Positions 14,814 to 64,000 of a stretch of 64,000 bases of DNA are shown piece after piece (the first letter of the stretch is position 1; each line of letters starts with the position of its first letter). Source of the DNA: Candidatus Woesebacteria bacterium (GTDB lineage Bacteria > Patescibacteriota > Microgenomatia > UBA8517); assembly GCA_013374855.1 (NCBI GenBank), contig CP055308.1:102800-166799 (forward strand). The letters are read 5' to 3'. The notes under the pieces were generated by a model. The model had not been told where the DNA came from. It made no database searches and worked only from the letters and a program-made list of their open reading frames with translations. The position numbers were made by a program, and so were the translations under genes.

Positions 14814-14849
<36 letters not shown>

Positions 14850-14988
14850 ACAAGGAATGTGGCTACCCGGCATTGCGGCTGACGCCACAACCGGCACACC
14901 AGGGATTCCTCCCTCCTGGTCCTCTCGTACTGAGGAGAGCTCCCCTCAAGATTCAACGCTCCCACCGGATAGAGTCCGAACTGTCTCG

Positions 14989-15023
<35 letters not shown>

Positions 15024-15036
15024 GGGCGAACAGACC

Positions 15037-15067
<31 letters not shown>

Positions 15068-15485: not shown

Positions 15486-15516
<31 letters not shown>

Positions 15517-15584
15517 GTGGGAGTAGGCCGCGTCTTCACAGCCATCGCAATTTCGCCGAGTGAAGGCTTAAGACAGTTGTCAGC

Positions 15585-15625
<41 letters not shown>

Positions 15626-15648
15626 GGCTTCGCTACCGTAGAACAGTT

Positions 15649-16150: not shown

Positions 16151-17065
16151 ATAGTTACTGCTGCCGTTTACCGGAGCTTGAGTTCGCAGCGCGTAGCACC
16201 AAATCCCCAACTTACAGCTTGCAACTAACAATCCTTATTGATTGCAAGTTAAGCATTACTTTTGTTGGAAACTTAGTGCTACGCACCGCTCCCCTTAACT
16301 TACCGGCACTGGGCAGGCGTCAGCCCGTATACTTCGGCTTTTCGCCTTTGCACGGACCTGTGTTTTTGATAAACAGTCGGCTGACAGACTTTAGCTTCGC
16401 CCGCCAACAACTTTGCAGCTATTGACGGGAGGACATCTTGCGAACTTACGTCCAGCTTTTTTGCCGAGTTCCTTAAGCCTCCTTCTCTCGCCCGCCTTAG
16501 AGTACTCCTCCAACCCACCTGTGTTGGTTTGCGGTACGGCTTGACTTGAAACTCACTGCGAGCCTTTTTTAAGAAACAGAATGCGCTGAAATCGCCAACA
16601 TCTCTGCTGACTTTGCATCACTGCTTGAATAAACAAACAGACGGATTTTCCAATCTGTTCTTCCTCACAGCTTGCACCCGCTAAATTCACAAGCAGGCTC
16701 CAGACATCCCGTTCCGTCAGCCCCCAGTTGATAGCGTCTCAAGACAAGTACTGGAATTTTAACCAGTTATCCATCGACTACTCTCCACACAAAGTGGAGA
16801 CTTGCCTTAGGCACCGACTAACCCGTCCCCGACGAACGTTGGGACGGAAACCTTGGGTGTTCGGCGGCCCTGATTCTCACAGGGCTTGCTCGCTACTCAT
16901 GCCGGCATTCTCACTTCCAAACGCTCCACCCTGCCTTGCGGCAGAACTTCACCGCATTTGGAACGCTCCCCTACCGCGCTTGTCCAATGAACAAGCACCT
17001 CTGGCTTCGGTGTTCGGCTTATCCTCGATGAATCTTAGGCGCTTTTCCCTTCAACTAGTGAGCTG

Positions 17066-17108
<43 letters not shown>

Positions 17109-17730
17109 AGCTGTCTGAAGAGAAAAACTTCCTTTAAAACTTAGCCGCAACAGAAAAGAAAAACTTTTCTGCCGTTGACAAAAAGTCAAAAACTTAGAGA
17201 CCTTAGCCGAGAGTCTGGGTTGTTTCCCTTTAGTCACATCGGCTTAGCCCGATGTGGCTGTCTACCCACCCGTTATCAGCAGGTATTCGGAGTTTGGTTG
17301 GATTATCTCGGTTGCCCTCGATAACCCATCCAGTATCTCTACCCCCCACTAATTTATGATGGGCACGGTCCCTATAGACCTTTCGGGGAGAACCAGCTAT
17401 CTCCAGATTCGGTTGGCATATTACCCCTATCCACAAGTCATCCCATGGTATTGCAACACCAACGGGTTCGGACCTCCCCCACCAATTACGATGGGTTCAT
17501 CCTGCTCATGGATAGATCATCTGGTTTCGGGTCTGCTACTTGGTACTTGAACGCGCTATTCGCACTCGGTTTCCCTACGCCTTCCCCGCTCAAGGCAGGT
17601 TAAGCTTGCACCAAATAGCAACTCGCCGGCTCATTCTTCAATAGGCACGCTATCACTTGTCAATTAGACAAGCTCTAGCGGTTTGTCCGCAAATGGTTTC
17701 AGTTTCTATTTCACTGGGCGTCCCGCCCTT

Positions 17731-17769
<39 letters not shown>

Positions 17770-18413
17770 TACAGGTTGTATTTAGCCTTGGAGGATGGTT
17801 CCCCCAGCTTCCCACAGTGTATTTGCACCGTGGTACTCAGGAAATCCCAAGGAAATTTATTGCCTTTCGCATACAAGACTTTCACTTTCTATGGTCAGAC
17901 ATTCCAGACTGTTCTGCTAGACAATAAACTCCCCTTATTGGGCTCCTACAACCCCCCAAAAGCTCCCGAAGGAACCTTCGAGGTTTGGGCTTTTCCGCTT
18001 TCGCTCTCCGCTACTGACGGAATCACTATTGTTTTCTCTTCCTCGCCTTACTTAGATGTTTCAGTTCAGACGGTTCCCTCTACACACCTTAATAGGCGCT
18101 CCTAAGAGCGTCACTTGGGGTGTGAGTATACTGCGATAAAGCAGTATGGGTTTCCCCATTCGGACACCGACGGATCACAGCCTTTTGGCGGCTCCCCGAC
18201 GACTTTCGCGGCCTTACGCGTCCTTCTTCGGCAACCTGTACCTAGGCATCCACCATTTGCGTGAGTAGACCTTAAAATATTCGGCCTTCCCATTTTCTCT
18301 TTCGCTTTACCGTTTAATAAAGCGAAAAAAAGACCTCTTTCGTTGTCAATGTGCTGTGGACCATGGGAGAATAGAACTCCCAAACTTTTGGACTTGTCAC
18401 GCTCTTTTCTTAG

Positions 18414-18487
18414 TGGACCTGAGCGGAGTCGAACCGCTGACCTCATCATTGCAAATGATGCGCTCTAACCAACTGAGCTACAGGCCC
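18414..18487 (-). tRNA. tRNA-Ala (anticodon UGC)
   Basis: Cloverleaf GGGCCTGTAGCTCAGTTGG...TTTGCAA...GGTTCGACTCC with a G3:U70 pair. It lies immediately upstream (rRNA sense) of the 23S 5' end. Confidence 0.85.
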
Positions 18488-18786
18488 ATACTAAGACAGG
18501 CGCATGCAAGGAAAAGTTTAGCTATCCAAGCTAACGGACCATGTGTTTAAAGTGCAACAAAAAACCGGCCTTTTGAGCCGGTTGCCTAATAAAACAAATA
18601 ATATTCAAAATCACACGCCACAAAAAGGACGTAAATTTTTTGTAATATATTTAATTGCTTTCATTAAAAAACGCAAACCTGCTCAAAAAGGCAAGTGTCA
18701 TTATAATATAGAAAAGCAAATTTAGTCAAGAGCAAAAAAGTTTGCTTAAAAAATTTTTTTATCATAAAATAAGAATGCCGTTAAAA

Positions 18787-18859
18787 GGGCACGTAGTTCA
18801 CCGGCAGAACGCTTACCTGATAAGTAAGAAGTAGATGGTTCGACTCCATCCGTGCCCAC
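18787..18859 (+). tRNA. tRNA-Ile (anticodon GAU)
   Basis: GGGCACGTAGTTCACCGGCAGAACGCTTACCTGATAAGTAAG...GGTTCGACTCCATCCGTGCCCA. It is on the opposite strand to the rRNA genes. Confidence 0.75.
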
Positions 18860-19422
18860 AATTCTGGAGAAAAAAGATTATTGGGATGACAATATTTCTT
18901 AAACTAGAGTAAAATATTTTCTAAATTCATTCCGATTATAAAATTTAAAAAAATAAATGAATAAAAATCTTTTCAAAATGTTTTTTATTTCTCTTGTTAC
19001 GCTGTTTTTAATTTTTATAATCTCATTGCTTTACGGAATTTTTGTTATACCTAAAATAAACAAGAATGTTATATGCATTCAATCATTATCGCAGTCTTGC
19101 TTCCTTGGAAGTCCCATCTGTTTTAATTTTCCCAATCCCTGTTTCACACCACCCCTTTGGTTTCCTGCAAAGAAAATAAAATGAGAAATTATTAAGGTAA
19201 GATTTTGAGTAGGTGAAAACACCAGTAAACCAACCCGACGGTCACAACCCCATCTGTCAATTAGTCCGAATAAGCTACGAAAGAGATTAAAAATTGAAGA
19301 AAATGCTAACGCACCAAGAATTAAGTGAAAACACAAACACCCTTTTACTTGTTGAAAAGAAAGAAAAAAGATATAATTAAGCTGTCAGTCTGCTTAGTTC
19401 TGTTTTCCAACCTAAAGTTAAA

Positions 19423-20786
19423 ATGACAAAAGACATCGTCAAAGAAGACTTGCAAGAAAAAGAAAATTTCTCGCCAGCAACTCAAGTCAATAATAATAAC
19501 GATAAGCTTAGTAATCAGAATAAGCCATTAAGAGAGGTTCTATTTATTATTGCTGAAGTCGCTATACTTTCCGCAACTTTTTATGCAGGGATGAAATTTT
19601 CTGCAAAAAAGGAAATTGCAAAACCACCCGTATCCGAAACAAACGAACAATTTATCCCTACACCTACCATCATGCCCTCAGAAAGTGATGAGGAAATATC
19701 AATACCATCAGTACCACTAAAACCAAATGCCATTTCACCATCAATATTCGGTTTTACAAAAACCATTGATCTTCCGGGCATGGGTGTGTCCGAGCTGCTT
19801 TTCCCAAAAACACCAAAACTAGTTACTCTGACCCAAAAACCCATTATTCAGCAGATTTACCAGACGGCTCGATAATTTTTTATATTTATCATTATCAGGG
19901 AGGTTCCCGTCGCACTTGGTTTAGAGATAATATTGGATATCCCGAAAGCATCTTTGAACCCTTTGGAGCAAATAATCATCAAGGTTATTTAAGCATTCCC
20001 AAAGATTCTAGTGAAAATACAGGCACCTTTTATTATTTTGCAGTTGTTAGAACAAATGAGATGCTTGTAATTCAATACAACCCAGGAATAGACAACAACC
20101 AAAATAATCTAGACAAATTTAAAAGCTTTATTTCCACTGTTCAAGTAATTGAACCAAATTTACAGGGTATAGAAAGATCCGATCAAACGAAGAATGAAAT
20201 TGAACGCTGGAGTAGTATCAGAAAAACGATTTGGGAACAGCCAGATTTAGGATTTCGAATAACTGCACCTGAGTGGGTTGAATCAAGGGTTCCAAAGCCA
20301 AGAAAGGATGATGGAACAGTAGAATATACAGAATGGTCAAGAACTTATCCAGAGGCTGAAACTACTAAATTTAACTACGGTGGGGAAGAAACAGATGGTA
20401 TTGTTGTAAAAGGGCTTCTATTTGGCGGGGCACATATCGTATTCTTAAACTCAAAATATAATGGTAAAACTTTTAACGACGTAGCTAACAGCCTATTACT
20501 AGGAGCTGGCAACTGTTCAGTTGGGTGGAAAAATTCGAAATCAGAATGCGGAGATATTCATCCAGACTACTGTTATACAAAAGAAGAAGTTATACAAAAT
20601 TTAGTTGTAAGAAAAACTTCCAAATTTGGACCTTATACAGGCCAGCTAAGGGGAATAAGAGCTAGTTTTTCCCAAAAGAGAGACTGTCGCGGAGAAAACA
20701 TTTGGATTATTAAAGCAAAGAATGGGCAATTTGTTATCTCGACAATTTATCCAGATAGTGAAAAAATCAGATTAGAAGGATTTTAA
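19423..20786 (+). pseudogene. Frameshifted copy of the Cys-rich membrane-anchored protein gene at 27435..28781
   Basis: Two ORFs (19423..19875, 20061..20786) are collinear with the intact 460-aa paralog. The intervening 185 bp translates in a third frame to the homologous FYIYHYQGGSRR...VVRTNEMLV. DNA alignment shows a ~2-nt indel near 19805. Confidence 0.65.
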
Positions 20787-20956
20787 TTTTCTAAAACTCT
20801 ATTTTACAAAACAAAAATAACTATAAAAAACTACAGAGGAAAATTTAAATTAATCCAATTTATTAGGTTACACTAAATTAATTTATCCTAAAACATCGCC
20901 CACGCCAAAACCGACCCATATTAATGTATTAACACATTAATACAAAAAAAGAAAGT

Positions 20957-21943
20957 TCACTCATACCCATTAGGGTTTTTAGAGTGCCAGAGATAAGCAG
21001 TTCTTACTATATCATATATATTATATTTTGGTTTCCAGCCAAGCTCTTTTCTAATCTTTTGATTTGAAGCCCAAAGAGAATCAGCATCTCCTTCCCTTCT
21101 TGGACCAAATTTGTAATTAAGCTTCAGCCCTGTTGTCTCCTCCACAATATCAATCAGCTCTTTATTCGTTGTACCACTACCACACCCAACATTGTAAAAA
21201 CCACTATTTCCGCCACTTTCTAAGAATTCAAGAGCCCTAACATGAGCATCCGCCAAATCAAGAACATGAACATAATCCCTCTCACACGTCCCATCTCTTG
21301 TTTTGTAGTCATTTCCAAAAATAGTAAATGAGGAATCTGACAAGGCAGCCTTTAACATAAGCGGTATAATATGACTTTCGTTGGGATGATCCTCACCCAA
21401 TTCCCCGTCTAAAGATGCGCCAGCTGCATTAAAATATCGCAAGGAAACAAACTCAAGAACAGAAGCCCTGTTCATCCAACTCAAAATTTTTTCTATCATC
21501 AACTTTGTCTCACCATAAGGATTAAGAGGGTTCCTTGGGTCATCTTCTTTTATGGGCAGACTCACGGGGTTTCCATAAACACCAGCAGAGGAAGAGAAAA
21601 CTATCTTCCCAACCCCAAAAACCTTCATTGCATCAAACAAATTAAGACTCAAACCAACATTTGTATTAAAGTAAAGTGAAGGCTCCCTCATTGACTCCCC
21701 CATCTGGATAAGACCCCCTAAATGAATAACACTATCTGGATTTTCTTTTTCAAAAACTTGTAAAAGCTTTTCCTTTTCCTTCAAGATATCAATCTTATAA
21801 AACCTAAATCCCTCTACTGCTTTTTCATGGCCTGAAGAGAAATTATCAACTACAAAAGGGTCATATCCTGATTTTTCAAGCGCTCTTATTACAAAACCTC
21901 CTATATACCCAGCCCCTCCTGCAACAAGAACCTTTTTGCCCAT
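20957..21943 (-). CDS. galE: UDP-glucose 4-epimerase / NAD-dependent epimerase
   Basis: N-terminal GGAGYIGGFV Rossmann motif and GalE-like collinearity (YxxxK region, ...HVLDLADAH...). Confidence 0.85.
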   Translation of the reverse strand: MGKKVLVAGGAGYIGGFVIRALEKSGYDPFVVDNFSSGHEKAVEGFRFYKIDILKEKEKLLQVFEKENPDSVIHLGGLIQMGESMREPSLYFNTNVGLSLNLFDAMKVFGVGKIVFSSSAGVYGNPVSLPIKEDDPRNPLNPYGETKLMIEKILSWMNRASVLEFVSLRYFNAAGASLDGELGEDHPNESHIIPLMLKAALSDSSFTIFGNDYKTRDGTCERDYVHVLDLADAHVRALEFLESGGNSGFYNVGCGSGTTNKELIDIVEETTGLKLNYKFGPRREGDADSLWASNQKIRKELGWKPKYNIYDIVRTAYLWHSKNPNGYE

Positions 21944-22043
21944 AAAACAATTATATCAATCAATTTCCTAAATCAAACTCGCAAAAGAAAGCCTTTGCAG
22001 AAAAAAGATAAAATTATGCACTAACTGCTATAATTAGTAGTGT

Positions 22044-24230
22044 ATGTTCCAAAATCAAGATGAAATAATCACATTAAATCTTAAAGTTCCAAGAAACAGC
22101 AAGACAACACCCGAAGCCTGCCAAACCTTTCTGTCTGCCCTGACCCAAATAAACGCAGTCTCTTTTTGGGAGAGACTAATAGGCACTATTGTTCAACCCC
22201 TTGCTTTAGAAATAGCTCTTGTTAATCAGCAGATAAGATTCCAGATCTCGGCAGACAAAGACATTACCCCTTTTGTCGCAACCCAGCTTCAATCAAACTA
22301 CCCTCTTGTAATAATAGAAAAAACAGCAGACCCTCTTTCCTACCCACAAGTTTATAACATTAATATTAATCCTCTTGAAATAATTTCTCTTTCTCTAAAA
22401 AAAGGAAATTACTATCCAATAGCAACATATGACACTTTTTCTGATATAGATCCCCTGTCATCTATTCTATCTATTCTTTCAAAATCAACACCTGATACGT
22501 TTGCAATAATTCAATTTGCTCTTGAGGCAACAGATTCCTCTTGGCAACAAAAAGGAGCGTCTTTTGCTGAAAAGGGAACAAAAAATGACGATGGTACTTA
22601 TTCCCCAAGAGCGGACAAAAATATAATAAATGATAAAATTTCTTATACAGGTTTTAGAACCTCAATAAGAATTGCTTCAAACCAAACTAGAACCGTAAAA
22701 GAGTTGGCTAGTGCCTTCGGAGTTTTTGCAAGAGCCGACGGAAATTCTTTTAAAACCGAAAAAAGAAAATTTACGTTTTTAAGAACCGACAACAGAAAAG
22801 ATCTGATTTTAAGAAAAGTTAAAGGAAATCAAATACTAAATATAAAAGAACTTGCTACCCTATGGCATTTGCCTTCAGAAAAAATAAAAGTACCAGGAAT
22901 TGGCTGGGGACATTCCGTTTTATACGAACCGCCAGAAAATCTACCAGTTGCCACAGCGGATGAGGAGACAAAAAAAGATATAAACTTCTTTGCCAAAACC
23001 ATCTTTAGAAACCAAGAAGTGATTTTTGGAATAAAAAGCAAAGACAGAACCCGACACATCTGGGCAGTTGGAAAAACAGGAACAGGTAAATCAACAATGA
23101 TGGCAAATATGATTATTGATGACTTTAAAAAAGACCGGGGGGTTGCATATATTGACCCTCATGGAGACACTTGTGACATTCTTCTTGATTACATCCCCTC
23201 ACACAGAATAAATGATACTGTTTATTTCGACCCATCAGATCGAGATTTTCCTATTGTAATAAATCCGCTTGAGGTTACAAACAAAGAAGAGGCAGAACTT
23301 GTAGTCTCAGGGCTAATGAGTATTTTTACCAAAGTATGGGCAAATGTTTGGTCTGCCAGAATGGAATACATCCTGCGAAATTCTTTTATGAGCTTAACTG
23401 AATATCCAAACGCCACACTTGCTGATGTATTAAAAATACTTGTTGATAAAGGTTTCAGAAACAATGTCTTGCAAAAAGTTACAGACCCAAGTTTGATTCA
23501 TTTCTGGAAAGAAGAGTATGAAAAAATGCCTGACAGGCTTCAAAAAGAAGCCATCGCTCCAATTCAAAACAAGGTTGGACAATTTGTAACATCCCCACTT
23601 ATAAGGAGAATAATCGGCAAGCCAAAAAGCACCCTTTCTCTTGAAAAAGTAATAAATGAGGGAAAAATACTTCTTGCCAACCTTTCCCAAGGAAGGCTGG
23701 GTGAAGACAATGCAAACCTGCTTGGAGCGATGCTTATTACTCAAATTCAGCTTGCTGCGATGAGGCGTGTAAACATACCTGTAGAACAAAGGCGACCTTT
23801 CTACTTATTTGTTGACGAGTTTCAAAATTTTGCCACAGACTCATTTATAAAAATACTTTCAGAGATAAGAAAATACAATCTTTCCCTCACTCTTGCCAAT
23901 CAGTATATGGCACAAATTCCAGAAAATGTAAGAAAAGCAATTCTTGGAAACGCTGGAACAATAATCACCTTTTCTGCGGGGGCAGAAGATGCATCTGTTT
24001 TAAGCAAGGAATTTGCCGAGGTTTTCTCCGAAAACGATCTTGTTAATCTTGCCAATTACCAAATAGCAATAAAGCTAATGATTGACGGCCATTCTTCCCG
24101 ACCTTTTCTTGCACAAACATTGCCACTTCCCCTTTCAAAAAACCAAAACAGAGAAAAAATAATAGAAGTCTCACGACAGCGATACGCAGATAAAACAGCA
24201 GGTATTAGGCATAACTTCTCAACAAACTAA
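22044..24230 (+). CDS. VirD4/TraG/TrwB-like P-loop ATPase (type IV secretion system DNA-binding-domain protein family). This copy has no N-terminal TM.
   Basis: Walker A AVGKTGTGKST and Walker B FYLFVDEFQNFA. 728 aa. It is a paralog of 61051..63369. Confidence 0.55.
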   Translation: MFQNQDEIITLNLKVPRNSKTTPEACQTFLSALTQINAVSFWERLIGTIVQPLALEIALVNQQIRFQISADKDITPFVATQLQSNYPLVIIEKTADPLSYPQVYNININPLEIISLSLKKGNYYPIATYDTFSDIDPLSSILSILSKSTPDTFAIIQFALEATDSSWQQKGASFAEKGTKNDDGTYSPRADKNIINDKISYTGFRTSIRIASNQTRTVKELASAFGVFARADGNSFKTEKRKFTFLRTDNRKDLILRKVKGNQILNIKELATLWHLPSEKIKVPGIGWGHSVLYEPPENLPVATADEETKKDINFFAKTIFRNQEVIFGIKSKDRTRHIWAVGKTGTGKSTMMANMIIDDFKKDRGVAYIDPHGDTCDILLDYIPSHRINDTVYFDPSDRDFPIVINPLEVTNKEEAELVVSGLMSIFTKVWANVWSARMEYILRNSFMSLTEYPNATLADVLKILVDKGFRNNVLQKVTDPSLIHFWKEEYEKMPDRLQKEAIAPIQNKVGQFVTSPLIRRIIGKPKSTLSLEKVINEGKILLANLSQGRLGEDNANLLGAMLITQIQLAAMRRVNIPVEQRRPFYLFVDEFQNFATDSFIKILSEIRKYNLSLTLANQYMAQIPENVRKAILGNAGTIITFSAGAEDASVLSKEFAEVFSENDLVNLANYQIAIKLMIDGHSSRPFLAQTLPLPLSKNQNREKIIEVSRQRYADKTAGIRHNFSTN

Positions 24231-24440
24231 CAAAAATAACACAACAGAAAATAGCCAATTTTTTTATTACCAGTCGAAATTTGAGGTTCTACCGCAAAGA
24301 CCTAAAACTTAAAATTTAGTTTTCAAAAGACTGTTAAACACAATTGAAAATTCAATACCCAGATTATGGCTGGAAGAGGTGCCCCGTTTTTTAAAAGAAA
24401 AACGGCGACATTAAAACTTGGGTGTATAAACACTCCTTAG

Positions 24441-25935
<1,495 letters not shown>

Positions 25936-40608: not shown

Positions 40609-42318
40609 TCAGGAGATTTTATAAATCCTTTTTATCTCAGGAACCGTTGTTGCCTCAGATAAACTCTTATCATCTCTCACTCTAACTAATCTTGGAAAAC
40701 GAAGCGCAAAACCGCAAGAATGAACCGGGCTTTTGGTTATCTCATCTGCCGCAACTTCAACCACTACTGACGGCTCAACCCAAAAATCAGGAAGTAATGT
40801 TTTATCCACCTCTCCATATTCTTTTGGTTTAACCTCTGTTTTAATTTTATTCAAAAGTCTGTACATCTCCTCAAACTGTTCATCAGTAAGACCTGTACCC
40901 AGCTTAGTGATGGTTAAAATTTTATCTTTTTGCACAACCCCCAACAAAAGGCCACCCAAACCAAATTTTGTTCTTTTTCCTTTGCCCACATAATAACCCA
41001 TAACCACACAATCTATTGTGTCTGCCAATTTTCCGGCTGATTTCTTTTCCTCTTTTATCTTCACCCACCGCCATCCAGTTCTGCCAGAGACATAAGGACT
41101 ATCCATTTTTTTAACCACAATCCCCTCATAACCACGAACCGAATATTCTCTAAACTTTTCTTCTATCAAAGAATAAGAATCTGCTGGTACAAAATCAACA
41201 ACTCTAAAAACAGAATTCTCTTTAACAACATTTTTCAAAATACTCTTTCTTTCAGTATAGGGATTGTTCATCAAATTAACTTCAGATTCCAAAAGGATAT
41301 CAAAAACATAAAATTGTATGGGGACTGAATAAGAATAAGATTCTATATTATGCTTTCTCCTTCTTGTCATGGTTGTCTGAAAATCAGCTATTCTTTTTCT
41401 CTCCTCATCTACTCCAACCGCCTCTGTATCAAGAATCAAAGAAGAAGAATTGCTTGCTTCTTCAATTTTTAAAAGCTCTGGAAACATCCAAGAGACCTCA
41501 TTCAAATTGCGAGTGTATGCCTTAACAAAACCATCTTTTCCTTTTTTATAATGAATCTGGAGCCTCAGGCCATCAATCTTGGGCTCAATACCAACCCTCC
41601 CCATTTTCTTAATTATCTCCTCAGGATCTTTCAGTCTTTGGGCAAGCATTGGCAAAACAGGAACACCCACAACAGGGGAGATATTTTTGACAGCTTCATC
41701 AATCCCAAAATTCTTGACCTTCATCGCCAGAAGACCAACATCAGGCAAAACAAAATATGCTCTCTCAAGCAACGGCTTCTTGGACTTATCACCTGTCTCG
41801 TACCAAGAAAGAGCGTCCAATATGGTTTTATCTGAGAACCCAAGGCGCAACTTACCCAACGGAATTCTTGTAATAAATTTGGAAGAAAGCGGGTCAACAA
41901 AAGACAAAATTTCAGCAAAATTTCTAATCTTTCTCTCTTGGCTTCCTTCTCCAGAATCAAGTGCTACTTTAAGGAGTAGGTCATAGATTTCCTCAACTGT
42001 GGGATCCTTTTTACTTTCACTCTTGTTCAAATTAAAAGAAACATCTCCCAAATCACCAACTCTTTTAAAAACCTCAATAACCTTACTTTTCTCAACAGAA
42101 AAAGCCAAAGAAAGAGATTCTATAACCATCTTTTCTGCCAGATTAAAAACAATACCCTCATATTTCGGCTTCAAAAGCCCCAAAACTAAATAACAAACTT
42201 TATCAATTTCTTCTTTTTTACTCTCTTTAAAAAGCTCAGCTAAAATTTCGGTTATTTTGATTCTTGAAGTATTTTTCTCAAGCTGTTCAAGATATAAAGA
42301 AAGCTTACTAAATCTCAT
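40609..42318 (-). CDS. ATP-dependent DNA ligase
   Basis: Adenylation motif I EPKIDGLR plus nucleotidyltransferase and OB-domain collinearity. 569 aa. No adjacent Ku gene. Confidence 0.8.
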   Translation of the reverse strand: MRFSKLSLYLEQLEKNTSRIKITEILAELFKESKKEEIDKVCYLVLGLLKPKYEGIVFNLAEKMVIESLSLAFSVEKSKVIEVFKRVGDLGDVSFNLNKSESKKDPTVEEIYDLLLKVALDSGEGSQERKIRNFAEILSFVDPLSSKFITRIPLGKLRLGFSDKTILDALSWYETGDKSKKPLLERAYFVLPDVGLLAMKVKNFGIDEAVKNISPVVGVPVLPMLAQRLKDPEEIIKKMGRVGIEPKIDGLRLQIHYKKGKDGFVKAYTRNLNEVSWMFPELLKIEEASNSSSLILDTEAVGVDEERKRIADFQTTMTRRRKHNIESYSYSVPIQFYVFDILLESEVNLMNNPYTERKSILKNVVKENSVFRVVDFVPADSYSLIEEKFREYSVRGYEGIVVKKMDSPYVSGRTGWRWVKIKEEKKSAGKLADTIDCVVMGYYVGKGKRTKFGLGGLLLGVVQKDKILTITKLGTGLTDEQFEEMYRLLNKIKTEVKPKEYGEVDKTLLPDFWVEPSVVVEVAADEITKSPVHSCGFALRFPRLVRVRDDKSLSEATTVPEIKRIYKIS

Positions 42319-42558: not shown

Positions 42559-43623
42559 TTATTTCTTTGCTATAACATACCTTGCTGCTTTAGTTGAACC
42601 TTCTTTTTTAATTATACCCTTTTCAAGCAACACTCTTAAATCGCGAAGTATTGTGTCTTCTGATACCATATCCAAAACTCTCCTTAACTCTCTCATCCCT
42701 GCCCCACCTGTATCTGAAATATACTCAACTAACCTTACTTGTCTTTCGGTTAATGCTATTTGCTCACCAACTTTAAGTTTGAGTCTTGTGTCAAGTGATA
42801 TCCTTCTTACTTTTTCTTTGACTTTCTCAAGCTCAATAGCTACAACCTCTGTAAAATACTCAAGCCAAGTTGTTAAATCCCTATCGTTTATACTTGGCGA
42901 TTGTTTATCTACAAGAGAAAGAGCCTGATAATAAACAAAAGGATCTGCATCAAAATGTTCCTCAAGAGAGAAAAACTTTTTAATATCATAGCCACTTTTT
43001 ATTAAAACCAAAGTAGAAAAAGCTCGTGCTGTTCTTCCGTTCCCCTCAACAAAAGGGTGTGCGGCAACCAAAAAGTAGTGAACAACGCCTGCCAAAATAA
43101 CAGGATGAATATCTTTTGCGCCATCGCTGTTTAGCCATTCAATCAAGTCCTCAATAAGGTGGGGCACTTCAACAAAAGCAGGTGGGCGCAAAATTACATC
43201 TCCTGTCTCTTCATTTTTTATAACAACCTGCACTCTTCTAAAAACACCTGCCTCTTGTTCTGGAACAAGTTTATCAACTGTAAGTTTGTGAATATCAAGA
43301 AGCATAGAAACTTCATACCCTCCCCTTTTGAATGCTAGTTCATCCAAAAGTTCAACAACATTTCTATAATTGATAACCTCTTGAATATCGCGGTGCCTTG
43401 CAACTATCGACTCTCCCTCTAAAATCTTTTTGGTCTGGAGCAAAGACAAATCATTTCCTTCGATGTGGGTACCATGATGAACTGTACGAACAAAAGCATC
43501 AGACCGAAACTGCTTCTCAAAAGAAGGAACAAGAGGAGCGTTTTCTATAACCTCCTTAGCAGCCTCAATTCTCCCAATAAAACGAAGTATTTTGTTGGTT
43601 ATTGTGTATTTTGGAGAGTACAT
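42559..43623 (-). CDS. Fic/Doc family protein with a C-terminal winged-helix domain
   Basis: Canonical Fic motif HPFVEGNGRTARAF. The start was moved to MYSPKY (43623), because the longer track ORF overlaps the divergent gene at 43682. Confidence 0.8.
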   Translation of the reverse strand: MYSPKYTITNKILRFIGRIEAAKEVIENAPLVPSFEKQFRSDAFVRTVHHGTHIEGNDLSLLQTKKILEGESIVARHRDIQEVINYRNVVELLDELAFKRGGYEVSMLLDIHKLTVDKLVPEQEAGVFRRVQVVIKNEETGDVILRPPAFVEVPHLIEDLIEWLNSDGAKDIHPVILAGVVHYFLVAAHPFVEGNGRTARAFSTLVLIKSGYDIKKFFSLEEHFDADPFVYYQALSLVDKQSPSINDRDLTTWLEYFTEVVAIELEKVKEKVRRISLDTRLKLKVGEQIALTERQVRLVEYISDTGGAGMRELRRVLDMVSEDTILRDLRVLLEKGIIKKEGSTKAARYVIAKK

Positions 43624-43681
43624 ATCCCTATTATAGCATTTTTTCTGCAGCTGTTGCGGTAAAAATATGTTAAAATAAATC

Positions 43682-43984
43682 ATGGCAAAATCTTTCCACC
43701 AAGAAGAGGTAGAAAAACAAGAGATGATCAAAAAAGCTGTCGAAGAAGCACAAAAAATAAGAAAGCAATTTATCAAAAAAACACTTGACCTTGCCACTTC
43801 TGGATTTGGACTGGTTGCTGCTCTTGCATGGAACGAGCTGATCAGAGAAACTGTAAATACATACATTAAGCCTTTTTTTGGAAAACAATCTGGAATAATT
43901 TCTCTTGCAATTTATGCTCTCCTTGTCACTTTCTTGGCAGTGTTTATAACCTACAATCTAAGTAGATGGTCAGAAAAAAAATAA
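43682..43984 (+). CDS. Small membrane protein (100 aa)
   Basis: Charged N-terminal helix, a TM pair (GFGLVAALAW..., ISLAIYALLVTFLAVFI). Confidence 0.5.
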   Translation: MAKSFHQEEVEKQEMIKKAVEEAQKIRKQFIKKTLDLATSGFGLVAALAWNELIRETVNTYIKPFFGKQSGIISLAIYALLVTFLAVFITYNLSRWSEKK

Positions 43985-53348: not shown

Positions 53349-54374
53349 CTAAGTCTTTTTGATCTTATAGACCGCCGCCTTTTTCCCCGAAACCAGAATA
53401 TCATGTTTTTCAATTAGAACTAGCTTTCCATAGAAATGCTTCATTGTCTTTTCAAACAATTCCTTTTGAGCAGTTAAAACTACCATCAAACCATTTCTCC
53501 TAATAACTCGCAAAAACTCCTTAACCATTTTTATATAAAAATCAGGGAGATCAAATTTCTCTTGTTCATAAATTCCCCAAGGAGGGTCCGTAACTATTTT
53601 ATCAATCGTGTCGTTACCCATTACCTGCAAATCGAGCGCATCATAATTTGTTACAGTTATTCTTCTTTTTAACTTATCTACACGTTCTTTTAGATATTTA
53701 TACATTTTGGGATCTTTATCATTTGCAATAATTTGCCTGTAGGGTAAAACCGTTCTTTCTAAAGGAATTGCTCCCGAGCCAGCAAATGGGTCAAGAAAAA
53801 CATCTTGAGGTTTTGGCTCTGATAATAAACAGAGAATATGAGCTAATTCTGGCCTGAGTTCTCCTTTGCGAAGTATCTTTTTATAATTAGGAGTTTTAGT
53901 AAGTCTCATCCCGACAAAACAGAATCCCTCTCTTCGCTTAAGAAACCATATCTCAATATCTGGTTTTGCTCTATTTATCTTAAGTTTAAATGTCTTTCCT
54001 AAAAAATTTTCTAGATTTTCTAACATTTTTTTGTCTGTGGAAACAAGACGATTCTCTTCGGAAACAATTACTCGAAAACTTCTTCTGTCCTTGATTATTT
54101 TAGAAGGAAATTGCCCTATCAAGTTCCCCTTCTGTAAAAAAATTTCGATGAGGTCCCTAACAGAGAATATTTCTTTGCCGTCAAAAAACTGAAGCAGCCA
54201 AAAGGTGTTGTTGAAAAAACGAAGAGTTAGAATTCTCCTTAGCGTTTCGTTGCTTTTATACATAATAAGACCATCGAGAACAAGATCGATTTGCACGTCT
54301 TTCAGCTTCTTTTTGAGAGCATCCTTGACCACTTCTTGAAACCCCGTAATAAACGTCGAGTAATAAATTTCCAT
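53349..54374 (-). CDS. SAM-dependent methyltransferase with a THUMP-like N-terminal domain (UPF0020/RlmL/Trm14-like), paralog A
   Basis: SAM motif FLDPFAGSGAIP and catalytic DPPWG. An N-terminal ~150 aa non-MTase domain. Tandem to a paralog. Confidence 0.6.
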   Translation of the reverse strand: MEIYYSTFITGFQEVVKDALKKKLKDVQIDLVLDGLIMYKSNETLRRILTLRFFNNTFWLLQFFDGKEIFSVRDLIEIFLQKGNLIGQFPSKIIKDRRSFRVIVSEENRLVSTDKKMLENLENFLGKTFKLKINRAKPDIEIWFLKRREGFCFVGMRLTKTPNYKKILRKGELRPELAHILCLLSEPKPQDVFLDPFAGSGAIPLERTVLPYRQIIANDKDPKMYKYLKERVDKLKRRITVTNYDALDLQVMGNDTIDKIVTDPPWGIYEQEKFDLPDFYIKMVKEFLRVIRRNGLMVVLTAQKELFEKTMKHFYGKLVLIEKHDILVSGKKAAVYKIKKT

Positions 54375-54405
54375 AAATATCAGACTCTTAATTAGAATTT
54401 TAAAA

Positions 54406-55428
54406 TTACGGCTTAATAAAGTAGTAAACCCCAGCCTTCCTTCCCGAAACTAGAATATCGAAAGTTTCATTAGGAAGCCATTCTAAGTTTTCGATCGCTT
54501 CTTCCATTTCATCTCTAGCTGCTGTAAGAATAACTAATCTTCCTTTACTCCTTAGAACTCGTCTCATCTCCCTTAACATTTCATAGTAAAATTTCCTGGG
54601 ATCTGATTTAAATTTTTTAAATATACCCCATGGGGGGTCAGTAACTATAACATCAACAGATTCACCTCGAATCTCTTTCATTTGCAAAGCATCTCCCCGC
54701 ATGACTCTCGTTCCTGGAAATTTCCTAAGTCGTCTTTTTGCTACCTCAACGCCTTTGGGGTCAATATCCATACCAATTATCTCCTTATAGGCAAAATGTT
54801 TAGCCCTTGACAGAAGGATTGCTCCAGACCCTGCAAATGGATCGAGAAAAACATCTTGGGGTTTTGGCTGTGAAATAAAATTAAGAAGATATGAAATTTC
54901 TCTACTTAATTCCCCTCTTTCTCTTTTTTCTCTATCGTTAGTTAACCTTAGGCCATAGTAACTTTCCCCGCTTCTGCGGATAAGAAACCAGATCTCAAAA
55001 TCTGGCTTGCTTCGATTAACTTGAACACCTAAGGATTTTGATGTTACTCTTTCCAATCTATTCATTTGTTTAGGTGATATTGGTCTTAGTTCGCCCTCTT
55101 CTGAAACCCTAAAACGAAAGGAGCGCCATCCAAAAAATCGGATAATCTGCCTTGCCATCAACGTAGATTCACGATCGATATTATTAAATAAAGACTCTAC
55201 AATTCTTGGTAAATTACTTGTATCAGAAAATTGCTGACGACTTAGAACAAGAAAAGCGTTCTGAAAAAAAGGTAAATTTTGCACTTGTTCAGGAGATAAC
55301 CTGCTGGAAAAAAATATGACACTACCATCGTACCTCCCCAAAGAAGCATCTGGGTCCTTCTCTATTAAGGCTCGGCCAACAACATCCCCTAATCCTGGAG
55401 GAAATGCCGAGAGGTATTCTGGTGTCAT
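54406..55428 (-). CDS. SAM-dependent methyltransferase with a THUMP-like N-terminal domain, paralog B
   Basis: FLDPFAGSGAIL and DPPWG. Same architecture and length (340 against 341 aa) as the adjacent gene. Confidence 0.6.
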   Translation of the reverse strand: MTPEYLSAFPPGLGDVVGRALIEKDPDASLGRYDGSVIFFSSRLSPEQVQNLPFFQNAFLVLSRQQFSDTSNLPRIVESLFNNIDRESTLMARQIIRFFGWRSFRFRVSEEGELRPISPKQMNRLERVTSKSLGVQVNRSKPDFEIWFLIRRSGESYYGLRLTNDREKRERGELSREISYLLNFISQPKPQDVFLDPFAGSGAILLSRAKHFAYKEIIGMDIDPKGVEVAKRRLRKFPGTRVMRGDALQMKEIRGESVDVIVTDPPWGIFKKFKSDPRKFYYEMLREMRRVLRSKGRLVILTAARDEMEEAIENLEWLPNETFDILVSGRKAGVYYFIKP

Positions 55429-57063: not shown

Positions 57064-57453
57064 CTAATAATAAAGATTAAAAACATCAAACCATCTTTGC
57101 CAAACAGGTTTTTCCTCTTGAACTTTTCGTGGTTCAAAATCGGTAACGAGTTTTTCTAATTCCTCATCATCAGGAAGGATTACTACCACCTCTCCTTCTT
57201 TTGCCATTCCAAGACTATCCCGTAGTCTCCTTTCTATGTATAAATCTGAACCAAGTTCTTCAATCCTCTTTTTTATACTTTCATTCTCCACCTTTAAACT
57301 TTCAACTATTCTCTCTTTCTCCTCAACACTAGATGAAGCTTCTTTAAACCTCAAAAAATTGTCCCAAAAGGTCTTCAAAGATACTGCCAAAACAAAAATA
57401 GAGACGATTGTTACAACTTTTTCTCTCAAATCACTTATAACATACCTACTCAT
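57064..57453 (-). CDS. FtsB/DivIC-like septum formation initiator (single TM plus coiled coil)
   Basis: N-terminal TM, a coiled coil (EEKERIVESLKVENESIKKRIEELG) and the RRLRDSLGMAKEGEVV motif typical of FtsB/DivIC. Confidence 0.55.
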   Translation of the reverse strand: MSRYVISDLREKVVTIVSIFVLAVSLKTFWDNFLRFKEASSSVEEKERIVESLKVENESIKKRIEELGSDLYIERRLRDSLGMAKEGEVVVILPDDEELEKLVTDFEPRKVQEEKPVWQRWFDVFNLYY

Positions 57454-57555: not shown

Positions 57556-58422
57556 ATGGAACAAACAGCCTTAAGAACAGTCCTTCCCGAATTTATAAAA
57601 AGCCTAACCGAAAAGGGCCGTTCTCCTTCAACTATTATAGCCTACAAGGCAGATATAGAACAATTTGTGGACTTCGCTGAAAGCAAGCAAAAACCCTTCA
57701 TCCAATCAGTGGGTAGCGAATTTATATCCTCATACCGCGACGCATTGCTTGCTGATAAATACACGCCCAAAAGTGTTTCAAGAAAGCTGAATGCCATAAA
57801 GACATTCTTTAAATACCTCAAAAACCAAAACTACATAAGCAACGATCCCGCTCAAGAAGTTGCTCATCCCAAAATTGAAGGGAAAAAGCCTAGATACCTC
57901 TCCAAAATTGAATACAGAGCACTAAGAGATACAGTAAGAGATGATATAAGAACAACCGCTATTGTTGAGCTAATACTTCAGGCAGGCTTGAGAATTTCAG
58001 AAGTAGCAAATTTAAAAATGAAAAATATAGGGGACGATAAACTAACCATAGAGGCTTATGCAAGCCAACCTCAAAGAGTAGTTCCTTTAAACAAAAGAGC
58101 TAAAGAAGCTTTAGAAAATTACATTAAAAACACAAGACCAAAAGCTGATTCTGATTTTGTCTTCGTCAGTAAAAACGGAAAACCACTTGCAATAAGAAAC
58201 ATAAGATTGGTAATCAACAAATATATGCAAAAGGCAGAATTGCCAAACTATTCTGTAAATGATCTGCGAACCACATTTATAATAGAAAACTTAAAAGCCG
58301 GAGTAAGTCTTACCTATCTTTCACAAGTGGCAGGACACAAAAGAATATCAACCACAGAATCCTACCTTCAACTCGCCGAAGTCCAAGAAGCAGGAAATAA
58401 ACAAGAGCTAACTGAATTGTAA
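57556..58422 (+). CDS. Tyrosine site-specific recombinase (XerC/XerD-like)
   Basis: N-terminal SAM-like domain. The catalytic region has R...HKRISTTESYLQL (H-x-x-R...Y). Confidence 0.8.
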   Translation: MEQTALRTVLPEFIKSLTEKGRSPSTIIAYKADIEQFVDFAESKQKPFIQSVGSEFISSYRDALLADKYTPKSVSRKLNAIKTFFKYLKNQNYISNDPAQEVAHPKIEGKKPRYLSKIEYRALRDTVRDDIRTTAIVELILQAGLRISEVANLKMKNIGDDKLTIEAYASQPQRVVPLNKRAKEALENYIKNTRPKADSDFVFVSKNGKPLAIRNIRLVINKYMQKAELPNYSVNDLRTTFIIENLKAGVSLTYLSQVAGHKRISTTESYLQLAEVQEAGNKQELTEL

Positions 58423-59479: not shown

Positions 59480-59488
59480 AAGGGCCGG

Positions 59489-59561
59489 TGGTCCGGGGAG
59501 GATTCGAACCTCCGACTTCCATTTTATAAGAATGGCACTCTAACCGCTGAGTTACCGGACC
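59489..59561 (-). tRNA. tRNA-Ile with anticodon UAU (reads AUA)
   Basis: GGTCCGGTAACTCAGCGGTTAGAGTG-CCATT-CTTATAA-AATGG-AAGTC-GGAGGTTCGAATCCTCC-CCGGACC-A. A clean cloverleaf with U33 and A37. Confidence 0.7.
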
Positions 59562-61050: not shown

Positions 61051-63369
61051 TTACAGCCTTGCCCTTCTTGCTATTTCAGCCTCTACCTCTCTTACATCCC
61101 TACCATACTTAAGTCTGCTCATCTCCTTTATAATTTCTGCCACTTTTGGATTCTCCATCTTTTTTACCTCACTCATATCTTTTGTAGTATCAATAGAGAA
61201 AGGAGGCACTGGTTCATTGTGCACAATAGTTTTAACAAAAGCGTTAAATCGTTCAATATTCAAAAGATCTTCCTCACTGAAAGTGGGAGCAAATTCACGC
61301 GCCAAATAGGAAGCGTCTGTCACACCTACCCTAAAAGCTATTTTTGTTCCCACATTCCCAAAAACAGCATTTTTAACTTCTTCTTCCATTTGACCAATAA
61401 ACTGGTTGGCAACACAAAGATTAAGTCTGTATTTTCTTGCTTCAGAAAGAATTACAGCAAAATCGGGTGTGGCAAAATTTTGAAACTCATCAACATAAAG
61501 ATAAAAATCGCGCCTTTTTTCCTCTGGCGTGTCTTGTCTACTCATTGCTGCCATTAAAATCCTTGGTACTAAAATTAAGCCCAGAAAGCTTGAGTTTTCC
61601 TCACCCAACTCCCCTTTTGCCAAATCAATAAGCAAAATCTTCCCCTGATCCATTACCTCTCTGAAAGAAAACGATGATTTCGACTGACCGATAATATTTC
61701 TCATCATTCTGTTTGTAACAAACCTACCAAATTTGGAAACTGTGTAGTCCAAAACCTCCGATTTATGGAAATCGGCAGTCTGGGCTATCTGGTCTGTCCA
61801 ATAACGGCGCACCATTGGATCTGTAACCTTTGGCAAAAGCTCTTGCACAAAGCGTGAATCAGTCATAATACGCACAACTTCGATAAATGTATTTCCCTCT
61901 TCCGCCATTGCTGTAAGCATTGCATTTCTTACTCCATGTTCAAAGCGAGGACCAACAATACCGGTTTTGTAAGGATCAAAAAGTTTATACATTAGGTTAA
62001 TAACTGAAGTTGCTACAAAATGTTTTTGGTCTTCGGTTTTTGCTTCCAACAAATTAAGTCCCATTGGTCGTTCTGTATCTGCTGGATTAAAATAAATAAC
62101 ATCCTCTGCTCTCTCTGGTGGAATCAGGGGTAGAAGTTGCCGAACTGTATCATGAGGATCGATAAAACAGATTCCTTTGCCTTCCTTTATATCCTGAATC
62201 ATCATTTGTTTCAAAAGTTCAGACTTACCAGTTCCAGTTGCACCTATTATGTATATATGTCTTCTTCTATCGTCATCCGAGATACAAACCCTTCTTCTGA
62301 TACCTCTAAACACACTCATCCCCAAGAAAAGCCCTTCTTCAGGAATCTGGCTTGGTGCGGGAGCTCTTTTTGCGTTAAGCCACTGAATGTTTGGAGTTGT
62401 CACACTACGATTTGGAAAGTGATATATGGTTGCCAACTCTTCAGAATTCAACACTGAAGGTCTGTTACCCCAAAAGTGAAACATCGGCTGATACCGGTAG
62501 AGAAAATCTTCCATAAAAGAAGCCTTATGGCGAATTTTTCTTGACTTAAAACCATTATTCTCACTTGAGAATTGTTCAAAAGCGCCTGATATGTTAGTAA
62601 GGTGCATCTTGGCAAGTTCTGTTGTTTCAGCAACCACTACAAACCTAATGGTTACCTCAAAACCGGGTTTACCTATTTTTGACTCAATTGCTTCCAAGAC
62701 TCTGCCTGAAACACTAAATTTCGCCTTTTCTGGGTCTGATTCACGCTTCTTTGTTTCTGAAATAAAAGAAGATCCATCTTTCTGCCATTTGGACTCGGCA
62801 GGAGAAATTACAATCTGAATAGCAGCAGCTTCTTTCTCCCCCATTTTTGCCAGGACCGAAGTTATAGGTAAAAGCGGATCAACTGCCAAATCTTTGTAAA
62901 CCTTTATCGGCTTAAAATTCTCCGCTCTTAACTGAAGAGACTTATAGGCAACCTTGCCTGTTTCATTAAATATGTTATACTCAGGAACTTCAACCACCTC
63001 CGCATCTGGATAGGCACCATTTATCTGTTTTTCTATCAAGTCTTTGTATCTACTTGGGCACCAAACATAAAAATTGATATAACCCTCGCGTGCTACAATT
63101 TCAAAAGAAATAGAAGGCTGAAAAGAAAATTTCTGTTTCCAGCCTCCTTTTTTGATTGAATAAAGCGAAGCAAAAACCTGTTCCATTGCATCTATTTTTA
63201 CCTCATTGGTCCGCGGAACAAGTACACGAAGAAGGACAGAATCAAGAGATTCCTTTTCTCTTCCCCTCCATCTAAAAATAGTGAAGATAAAAAAACCAAA
63301 TCCAGCCAGAAAAAAGACCGAAAAAAGAACCAAAACTATCAAAGCCAAAATGGTCGTTGGGTCAATCAT
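61051..63369 (-). CDS. VirD4/TraG/TrwB-like P-loop ATPase with an N-terminal transmembrane anchor
   Basis: N-terminal TM pair, Walker A IIGATGTGKSE and Walker B FYLYVDEFQNFA. 772 aa. Paralog of 22044..24230. Confidence 0.6.
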   Translation of the reverse strand: MIDPTTILALIVLVLFSVFFLAGFGFFIFTIFRWRGREKESLDSVLLRVLVPRTNEVKIDAMEQVFASLYSIKKGGWKQKFSFQPSISFEIVAREGYINFYVWCPSRYKDLIEKQINGAYPDAEVVEVPEYNIFNETGKVAYKSLQLRAENFKPIKVYKDLAVDPLLPITSVLAKMGEKEAAAIQIVISPAESKWQKDGSSFISETKKRESDPEKAKFSVSGRVLEAIESKIGKPGFEVTIRFVVVAETTELAKMHLTNISGAFEQFSSENNGFKSRKIRHKASFMEDFLYRYQPMFHFWGNRPSVLNSEELATIYHFPNRSVTTPNIQWLNAKRAPAPSQIPEEGLFLGMSVFRGIRRRVCISDDDRRRHIYIIGATGTGKSELLKQMMIQDIKEGKGICFIDPHDTVRQLLPLIPPERAEDVIYFNPADTERPMGLNLLEAKTEDQKHFVATSVINLMYKLFDPYKTGIVGPRFEHGVRNAMLTAMAEEGNTFIEVVRIMTDSRFVQELLPKVTDPMVRRYWTDQIAQTADFHKSEVLDYTVSKFGRFVTNRMMRNIIGQSKSSFSFREVMDQGKILLIDLAKGELGEENSSFLGLILVPRILMAAMSRQDTPEEKRRDFYLYVDEFQNFATPDFAVILSEARKYRLNLCVANQFIGQMEEEVKNAVFGNVGTKIAFRVGVTDASYLAREFAPTFSEEDLLNIERFNAFVKTIVHNEPVPPFSIDTTKDMSEVKKMENPKVAEIIKEMSRLKYGRDVREVEAEIARRARL

Positions 63370-63370
63370 A

Positions 63371-63718
63371 TTAACTTTTACCTGCTTTCAATAAACCCAC
63401 AATCTGCCAACCAAAAACTCTAGCCTTCTCAATAAGCCTTAACCAAAACCTAGCCAGCCATGTTTTCGCCTCATCTGGAGAACCTTTACTTTCTTCCTCC
63501 AAGACCGCTTCCGGCTTTGGTAATTCTATTATAATTTTTTTGGTCTGCGGAGTCTGAATAAGTGGTTTCCCCTGATCGTCAGTAACCTGTTTCTGAAATT
63601 GTGTAGGAACAACCTGAACACCTGGAATATTTTTTTCAATACTTTCTGGAAGACTATCAGGTCTTTCAACTGCTTGTGGCTGCTCAATCTGTCCTTCTCT
63701 TTCCACTTGAGTTGCCAT
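63371..63718 (-). CDS. Hypothetical small protein (115 aa), probably co-transcribed with the downstream ATPase
   Basis: Its stop is 2 nt from the ATPase start codon. Charged Q/E-rich sequence. Confidence 0.45.
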   Translation of the reverse strand: MATQVEREGQIEQPQAVERPDSLPESIEKNIPGVQVVPTQFQKQVTDDQGKPLIQTPQTKKIIIELPKPEAVLEEESKGSPDEAKTWLARFWLRLIEKARVFGWQIVGLLKAGKS

Positions 63719-63763: not shown

Positions 63764-64000
63764 TTAAGAAGATTTCCAGATTTCCTCTTTTACTCCACTT
63801 TTAAAATTAATCCATCTACCCAAAATGAACAAATAATCAGACAACCGATTAATATACGCAAGAACCAATGGTTCAATTTCTCTTTGAATAGCAACCAATC
63901 TTCTTTCAGCCTTTCTTGCAAGAGATCTGGTATAAAAAAGGCCCGTTGCAATCACATCTCCACCCAAAAAAATAAAAGAGGTTTGCACCGGCAATTTGCT
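63764..64000 (-). CDS. C-terminal part of a PduO-type ATP:cob(I)alamin adenosyltransferase; the gene continues beyond the window
   Basis: YTRSLARKAERRLV and RLSDYLFILGR match the PduO/MMAB-type ATR signature. No in-window start. Confidence 0.55.
   Translation of the reverse strand, partial: SKLPVQTSFIFLGGDVIATGLFYTRSLARKAERRLVAIQREIEPLVLAYINRLSDYLFILGRWINFKSGVKEEIWKSS

Follow-up and report, generated by a model that had tools for sequence, protein, structure and literature searches.

Two chromosomal genes of a Candidatus Woesebacteria bacterium, both located in a 64,000-nt stretch of contig CP055308.1 (hereafter the window), encode intact, full-length paralogous ATPases with intact Walker A and Walker B motifs. 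These proteins, called A and B below, join a motor of the VirD4/TrwB kind to an N-terminal domain, DUF8128, and are best read as paralogs of a type IV coupling protein (T4CP) of the kind found in monoderms and archaea. We further lean towards the proposal that they are membrane-associated hexameric coupling or translocation motors of the domesticated, relaxase-less type IV secretion system (T4SS) of the candidate phyla radiation (CPR). The two genes are as follows.

61051..63369, minus strand: paralog A, 772 aa; transmembrane (TM) helix (residues 4-33), DUF8128 with a predicted likeness to the VirB4 N-terminal domain (residues ~44-315), and T4CP-type P-loop motor (residues ~346-772; Walker A 376-383, Walker B 623-628, all-helical insert ~446-560)
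22044..24230, plus strand: paralog B, 728 aa; DUF8128 and T4CP-type motor, no TM segment; between the unlinked 23S and 16S rRNA genes

Motor family and domain architecture

The initial annotation of this DNA had reported three open reading frames (ORFs), one of them a small partner of A described below, and had noted Walker motifs in the two larger products. All were recovered, at 772 aa (A), 115 aa (partner) and 728 aa (B). Walker A reads IIGATGTGKS in A and AVGKTGTGKS in B, and Walker B reads FYLYVDEFQNFAT and FYLFVDEFQNFAT, respectively; in an alignment of 58 homologues from both lineages, residues G376, T378, G379, G381, K382, D627 and E628 are invariant. BLASTP aligned A and B with 32% identity over 737 aa (E=1e-117), that is, over their full length, so that the ~300 residues on the N-terminal side of the ATPase are aligned as well. 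No hydrophobic segment is present in B, whose gene lies 211 bp from the 16S gene, in agreement with its first description as a soluble paralog beside that gene. The pair of N-terminal TM helices ascribed to A was not found: the protein has a single hydrophobic stretch of ~26 residues (I7-F32; 26 to 35 residues in orthologues) followed by RWRGRE, and its AlphaFold model has one helix at residues 4-33. The GC content of the A and B regions is uniform with that of the surrounding genome.

Profile searches bore out the initial assignment of both proteins to a VirD4/TraG-like family. TrwB_AAD_bind (PF10412) scored 37.4 bits in A and 34.2 bits in B (Pfam gathering cut-off, 20.5), and TraG-D_C (PF12696) scored 26.6 and 36.1 bits (cut-off, 22), whereas FtsK_SpoIIIE remained under its cut-off in both. 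DUF87, the HerA central domain, was marginal in A and over the Pfam cut-off in B. The best NCBIfam matches were to the TraD, TrbC and CD1115 VirD4-like T4CP models and to CedD. As a structural match, FtsK was much poorer. Neither protein combined a motor domain over the cut-off with the gamma KOPS-binding domain of FtsK/SpoIIIE, nor did we find the HerA set of a central domain, a HAS barrel and a NurA or Sir2/DUF partner. The motor falls within the VirB4/VirD4/HerA branch and does not resemble FtsK, so that the finding which the initial annotation had named as fatal to its own proposal, a best match to FtsK/HerA-type DNA translocases, was not obtained. Within that branch, the VirD4/T4CP assignment of A and B is supported.

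A and B share several properties with the VirD4/TrwB/TraD coupling proteins (1E9R, TrwB; 8DOL, Cag-beta; 6SZ9, DotL), namely, a P-loop motor that belongs to the FtsK-HerA superfamily, a distance of ~245 residues between the Walker A and Walker B motifs with an all-helical insertion in between and, for A, a probable N-terminal membrane anchor. In the AlphaFold model of A the insertion consists of eight helices (residues 446-560) between strands 424-427 and 578-582, and 86% of TrwB-deltaN70 aligns with the model. The helical insert cannot separate VirD4 from VirB4, because the VirB4 C-terminal domain has a comparable one. Both proteins also differ from canonical T4CPs. They carry the ~300-aa DUF8128 domain, absent from canonical T4CPs, which in A separates anchor and motor; the usual pair of TM helices is reduced to a single helix in A and is missing from B; and the genes are chromosomal, occur as two conserved paralogs and are not linked to a relaxase or virB4 gene. 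T4CPs without a TM segment are known. As DUF8128 forms a separate domain in both proteins, their architecture is not that of a canonical VirD4.

Precomputed Pfam annotation places PF26449 (DUF8128) at residues ~45-340 of A, and assigns it to A itself and to 237 of the 240 A-type and B-type homologues listed. A literature search retrieved no publication that mentions PF26449 or DUF8128. When modelled alone, the domain reached a predicted local distance difference test (pLDDT) score of 89.5 and a predicted template modelling (pTM) score of 0.88. With the full model of A as the query, Foldseek placed full-length TrwK first (E about 1e-16 over ~850 columns) and TrwB behind it (E about 6e-12 over ~430 columns). 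When the query was the N-terminal domain without the P-loop domain, no P-loop protein other than VirB4 appeared in the match list, and 4AG5, which contains the C-terminal domain only, was absent from it. As the query had no P-loop domain and 4AG5 was not matched, the part of VirB4 that is matched must be its N-terminal domain. For the ~300-aa domain common to A and B, the models therefore predict a fold resembling that of the VirB4 N-terminal domain, a domain that binds VirB3 and VirB8 and pairs VirB4 subunits.

The layout of an N-terminal domain followed by a C-terminal ATPase, as well as the overall length, is likewise similar to that of VirB4 (TrwK of R388, 7O42/8RTD; Thermoanaerobacter 4AG5). 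Unlike VirB4, A and B have no Pfam CagE_TrbE_VirB match, and the plasmids that encode DUF8128 proteins carry a separate, true VirB4. The NCBIfam VirB4 models gave only E-values of at least 2e-4. AAA_10 was matched by B only and below its cut-off (E=0.017, 14.6 bits; cut-off, 27.5), TIGR00929 reached E=0.016, and hhalign gave a 6% probability to the alignment of the motor with the C-terminal halves of plasmid VirB4 proteins.

Homologues, inheritance and gene context

Outside the CPR, the closest homologues of A are plasmid-borne. Using tblastn, A matched 605 plasmid records, among them 286 from Bacillus, 93 from Streptomyces, 34 from Staphylococcus, 12 from Sulfolobus and others from several haloarchaeal genera. 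The best of these matches (Bacillus and haloarchaeal) span ~85% of A (residues 43-702), DUF8128 included, at ~25% identity. DUF8128 alone matched 53 plasmid records and aligned with a Bacillus subtilis plasmid protein at 28% identity over 306 aa (E=2e-23), and hhalign probabilities against such plasmid proteins were 99.5% for DUF8128 and 99.9% for the motor. The Bacillus proteins, annotated as "DUF87 domain" proteins (NZ_OX419581.1, NZ_CP154917.1), have the same two-domain architecture and, like B, no TM anchor. Unlike A and B, they are encoded within full conjugation modules (TcpC/D/E, AAA_10 VirB4-like ATPase, hydrolase). On two B. subtilis plasmids the gene is directly upstream of a replication-relaxation (relaxase-type) gene, and both modules contain other conjugation genes and a separate ATPase of VirB4 size (~850 aa). 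The 63.6-kb plasmid has TcpC-, TcpD- and TcpE-family genes, and its ~850-aa ATPase matches Pfam AAA_10; the module of the 27.5-kb plasmid includes a cell-wall hydrolase as well. The Bacillus homologues thus occupy the coupling-protein slot of a monoderm Tcp-type conjugation module. On haloarchaeal plasmids, in contrast to A and B, the DUF8128-like part is a separate polypeptide of ~350 aa, and its gene immediately precedes that of the T4CP-like ATPase.

Two further features of these plasmids were recorded. On the Haladaptatus plasmid NZ_CP085328.1 (L090, 11911..15840), a 1,072-aa hypothetical gene precedes the split DUF8128 and ATPase pair. On the B. subtilis plasmid NZ_OX419581.1 (L089, 482..3690), a Flp/Tad-type pilus set made up of CpaB, an AAA ATPase and a T2SS/T4P/T4SS-family ATPase lies upstream of the conjugation module.

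Among Woesebacteria, identity is 73-78% between orthologues of the A type and 65-93% between those of the B type, and both types were found together in one Woesebacteria genome and on one 170-kb contig. Full-length A-like genes with 40-74% identity are present in Levy-, Gottesman-, Davies-, Curtiss-, Roizman-, Shapiro- and Collierbacteria, and also in Dojkabacteria, WWE3, Saccharibacteria, Doudnabacteria and Berkelbacteria. A-like matches occurred in at least 598 species representatives, and a phmmer search with DUF8128 alone returned 2,465 cluster representatives at 50% identity. Where distant lineages have a pair of genes, the first is clearly A-type (about 650 versus 370 bits), and the second is slightly nearer to B (about 520-540 versus 500-515 bits) and may keep its TM helix. 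These scores point to an old duplication followed by lineage-specific loss of the anchor.

Gene order is conserved around both paralogs. The position of B between the 23S gene and 16S/DedA is kept in a related locus (L007). For A, the conserved order is NrdR, ribonucleotide reductase (RNR), cob(I)alamin adenosyltransferase (CobAT), small ORF and A, followed further on by an XerC/D-like recombinase, DivIC, TrpRS and FtsH. We compared 80 related genome loci (L009-L088) with flanks of ±10 kb, and found an Xer-like gene ~0-5 kb from A in 37 of them and DivIC in 29. Thus, A and B are two ancient, vertically inherited lineages in fixed housekeeping synteny. In L073 the A-like and B-like genes are adjacent, and in L079 (9110..17305) and L080 (9164..18455) they belong to one same-strand cluster, with a conserved ORF of ~175 aa and a gene for a 346-aa Sigma70_r4 + HARE-HTH DNA-binding protein lying between them. 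An ORF of ~175-200 aa also follows A in L075, L077, L081 and L084. The adjacency in L073 and the clusters of L079 and L080 hint that the paralogs act together. Many of the 80 records, plainly CPR contigs, are titled "uncultured Gammaproteobacteria", "Pseudomonadales", "Bathyarchaeia", "Limisphaerales" or "Methylomirabilota"; these titles are likely label or binning errors, and taxon names taken from such records should be distrusted. The neighbours of A in the window, including the small partner, are listed below.

63371..63718, minus strand: small partner ORF, 115 aa; acidic, poorly conserved N-terminal part and basic amphipathic C-terminal helix (TWLARFWLRLIEKARVFGW)
63764..64000, minus strand: 3' end of the CobAT gene, cut by the window edge; last of the NrdR-RNR-CobAT genes before the partner and A
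57556..58422, plus strand: XerC/D-like tyrosine recombinase; syntenic neighbour of A in many CPR classes, given as context and not as a proven part of the system
57064..57453, minus strand: DivIC; likewise a syntenic neighbour in many CPR classes, context and not a proven part

The partner, first described as translationally coupled to A, has a single base between its TAA stop and the ATG of A. The two genes had been described as a two-gene operon; they are instead the tail of a same-strand run of NrdR, RNR, CobAT, partner and A, with gaps of 8, 45 and 1 nt. Scans for promoters and terminators yielded no more matches than expected from shuffled sequences. At the other end of A, its stop codon abuts that of the convergent phosphoglucomutase gene (plus strand) at 61050/61051 with zero intergenic bases, which leaves no space for a terminator.

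The acidic character initially given to the partner holds for its first 84 aa (pI 4.5), which are probably disordered, and does not extend to its last 31 aa, a basic amphipathic helix with a pI of 11.7 and a hydrophobic moment of 0.54. Overall, the pI is 5.6, with 17 D/E versus 16 K/R residues. No Pfam or NCBIfam family was matched. Among Woesebacteria, partner orthologues are 35-40% identical; the sequence drifts fast and the C-terminal motif is kept. A small ORF is present upstream of A in most Microgenomatia and Dojkabacteria loci, and the helix motif W-x-x-x-W/F-x-x-R-x-x-K occurs in 28 of 71 ORFs upstream of A, compared with 3.2% of background ORFs.

This context bears on two other explanations. 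The nearest non-CPR homologues are plasmid-borne, and a tyrosine-recombinase gene lies ~2.6 kb from A, as would be expected if A and B were two decaying, functionless T4CP genes left by an integrated conjugative element or plasmid. Such an origin is scarcely credible. Both ORFs are intact, with catalytic residues invariant in the 58 homologues; the genes are highly conserved and keep a syntenic position across classes; the vicinity holds neither a relaxase gene nor any other gene for conjugation; and the recombinase itself has an Xer-type SAM_1 domain and is syntenic with DivIC. We rejected a mobile-element remnant on the grounds of synteny, conservation and a GC content equal to that of the surrounding genome.

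A and B might also be envisaged as ATPases akin to HerA, DptH or MADS-mad8 that defend the cell against phages or plasmids, since the best PADLOC match was mad8 (E=7e-21 for A and 1e-16 for B), several weak HerA matches were obtained and DUF87 passed the Pfam cut-off for B. Yet the mad8 match is limited to profile positions 24-254 of 314, which make up the P-loop core, and the N-terminal domain is predicted to be VirB4-like, not a HerA HAS barrel. Orthologues are near-universal, 73-78% identical in Woesebacteria and set in fixed housekeeping synteny, unlike variable defence islands. No methyltransferase, nuclease or Sir2 partner adjoins A or B in the window, and in place of an eight-gene mad operon, the neighbours of A are NrdR, RNR, CobAT and phosphoglucomutase. 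The preprint on MADS leaves the nature of mad8 unstated in its text. A role in defence is thus very improbable, and we rejected it on gene context.

Relation to the patescibacterial T4SS

Pfam scans of 30 of the larger ORFs, seven of which (494, 1017, 315, 460, 259, 241 and 150 aa) had no Pfam match, and jackhmmer searches with plasmid probes agreed with the initial annotation that VirB4, VirB6 and relaxase genes are not found in the window. The jackhmmer probes, the Bacillus plasmid VirB4, relaxase, TcpC, TcpD and TcpE proteins and a 1126-aa protein, had zero matches in the window and 90 loci. The linkage to a relaxase and/or channel gene that is typical of T4CPs was seen for the plasmid homologues and not in the window or the 80 flanks.

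Much of this has been described at the level of the phylum. A survey by Quinonero-Coronel et al. (2025, PMC12102498) counted 5,713 VirD4-like T4CP homologues in 2,918 Patescibacteria genomes, ~2 per genome, and found VirB4 of an MPF-FATA-derived clade in 2,417 assemblies of a 3,035-genome dataset; relaxases were all but missing. That these genes exist, how many copies a genome has and that they are unlinked has therefore been published. Two copies are the norm throughout the phylum; they are old, vertically inherited paralogs and are not special to the window. For the VirB4-like N-domain, the existence of two orthologous lineages, the partner and the plasmid homologues in the T4CP slot, we found no earlier description. 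What the present analysis adds is architectural, a predicted VirB4-like N-domain on a VirD4-like motor, and evolutionary.

Several observations weigh against a T4SS coupling function. The NCBIfam T4CP scores are all far under their cut-offs, the best being 39.9 bits against 250-800, and hhalign did not relate the sequence of DUF8128 to the N-terminal half of either of two VirB4-like ATPases from Firmicutes, which leaves predicted structure as the basis of the likeness to VirB4. There is no T4SS gene in the window, in the ~5 kb past its left edge or in the ±10-kb flanks of the 80 loci. In the survey, only 148 of the 5,713 T4CP genes were near virB4, T4CP homologues were present in more genomes than VirB4 (2,918 versus 2,417), and in S. 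epibionticum the t4cp homologue was non-essential while T4SS genes were essential (PMC12102498). Moreover, Wang et al. (2023) reported no recognisable coupling protein or relaxase in the essential T4SS cluster of that species.

The survey data also favour an exapted, T4SS-independent nucleic-acid translocase, acting alone or with other partners in the uptake of host DNA or RNA for nucleotide salvage or, in an FtsK-like manner, in chromosome segregation and resolution during division with Xer and DivIC; the authors of the survey themselves state that exaptation of the T4CP homologues cannot be excluded (PMC12102498). The conserved synteny with the Xer-like recombinase and DivIC in several CPR classes and with NrdR-RNR-CobAT would fit such a role, as would the DNA-binding protein encoded between the paralogs in L079 and L080 and a 2026 preprint reporting a patescibacterium that feeds on host RNA. 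It may be, however, that synteny in small, stable CPR genomes is simple conservation of gene order. A precedent for import is offered by CedD, a VirD4-like ATPase with an unlinked gene on the chromosome, which carries a TM anchor only in certain species and is essential for DNA import (PMC11823120). Even so, CedD still partners a T4SS-like apparatus. We consider a T4SS-independent translocase possible, if clearly less than probable.

The comparison with CedD/TedD of the archaeal Ced/Ted DNA import systems is instructive in both directions. Like A and B, CedD/TedD is a chromosomal VirD4-like ATPase unlinked to its own machine, and it serves a domesticated, non-conjugative T4SS-like apparatus (PMC11823120). 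The NCBIfam CedD match to B is weak (E=4.5e-11), and at 42 bits, far under the 600-bit cut-off, B is not a CedD orthologue. The CedD profile has 527 positions and the Walker A region of B aligns near position 206, so that the region preceding the motor is shorter in CedD than in A and B. DNA import has been demonstrated for CedD, whereas for A and B any transport function is a proposal.

Taken with the Pfam and structural matches, the plasmid homologues in the coupling-protein slot lead us to retain the coupling or translocation motor of a domesticated T4SS as the preferred explanation. Each protein would assemble into a hexameric ring, driven by ATP, on the cytoplasmic side of the membrane. 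A would be held there by its single N-terminal TM helix, in an N-out/C-in orientation according to the positive-inside rule, and B might be recruited via protein contacts, possibly through the VirB4-like domain. The rings would feed or receive a macromolecular substrate via the MPF-FATA-derived T4SS encoded elsewhere on most Patescibacteria chromosomes, and the partner may dock on A or on the membrane by its basic amphipathic helix. The initial annotation had related the two copies to a translocation apparatus for epibiosis, an idea that we regard as plausible.

The T4SS of Patescibacteria is relaxase-less and is essential for epibiotic growth in the single species tested. Near-universal and highly conserved, with two old paralogs, the DUF8128 ATPases are obvious candidates for its missing substrate-selecting motor. 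If the N-domain is indeed VirB4-like, it provides a concrete docking hypothesis, with VirB3/VirB8/VirB4-type contacts, and bears on the evolution of coupling proteins from VirB4. Should the pair prove T4SS-independent, it would represent a core translocase that has so far been overlooked in a very large radiation of bacteria.

A bolder extension, which we regard as rather improbable, would make DUF8128 proteins a third, hitherto undescribed class of T4SS ATPase, with a VirB4-type N-domain and a VirD4-type motor kept since the split between coupling protein and VirB4. In the CPR, the N-domains would then bring membrane-anchored A and its paralog B together in a double ring, as the central and outer VirB4 subunits are arranged in the R388 machine, and this complex, with the partner as an adaptor, would perform a CedD-like import of host nucleic acid tied to the adjacent ribonucleotide-reductase genes and an RNA-feeding lifestyle.

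Other features of the window

The rRNA genes around B are unlinked (14523..25934), with 5S and 23S at 14.5-18.3 kb and 16S at 24.4-25.9 kb, a layout kept in L007. The ~6.2 kb between 23S and 16S contain tRNA-Ala, tRNA-Ile(GAU), three small or unannotated ORFs and a GalE-like epimerase gene in addition to paralog B. The 23S rRNA gene (14697..18276, minus strand) spans 3,580 nt compared with 2,925 nt for the model, indicating one or more insertions of ~650 nt in total, and LAGLIDADG homing-endonuclease ORFs are present at the corresponding place in L007 and L008. In a Woesebacteria relative (L005, 12952..14322), the product of the FtsH gene is 1,053 aa long and contains an intein (Intein_splicing and LAGLIDADG_3).

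A tRNA-Ile gene with the anticodon UAU is present at 59487..59561 (minus strand). This tRNA is unusual in bacteria, where AUA is mostly read by a lysidine-modified CAU tRNA. A three-domain ATP-dependent DNA ligase (DNA_ligase_A_N/M/C), of a type that is mainly archaeal and eukaryotic, is encoded at 40609..42318 (minus strand), and a Fic/DOC-domain protein at 42559..43866 (minus strand). Two tandem RMKL-like (UPF0020) methyltransferase paralogs occupy 53349..55428 (minus strand). At 1845..10618 (minus strand), ORFs of 494, 1017 and 315 aa without a Pfam match at E<=0.05 adjoin a sortase gene (9902..10618) and may encode sortase-anchored surface proteins.

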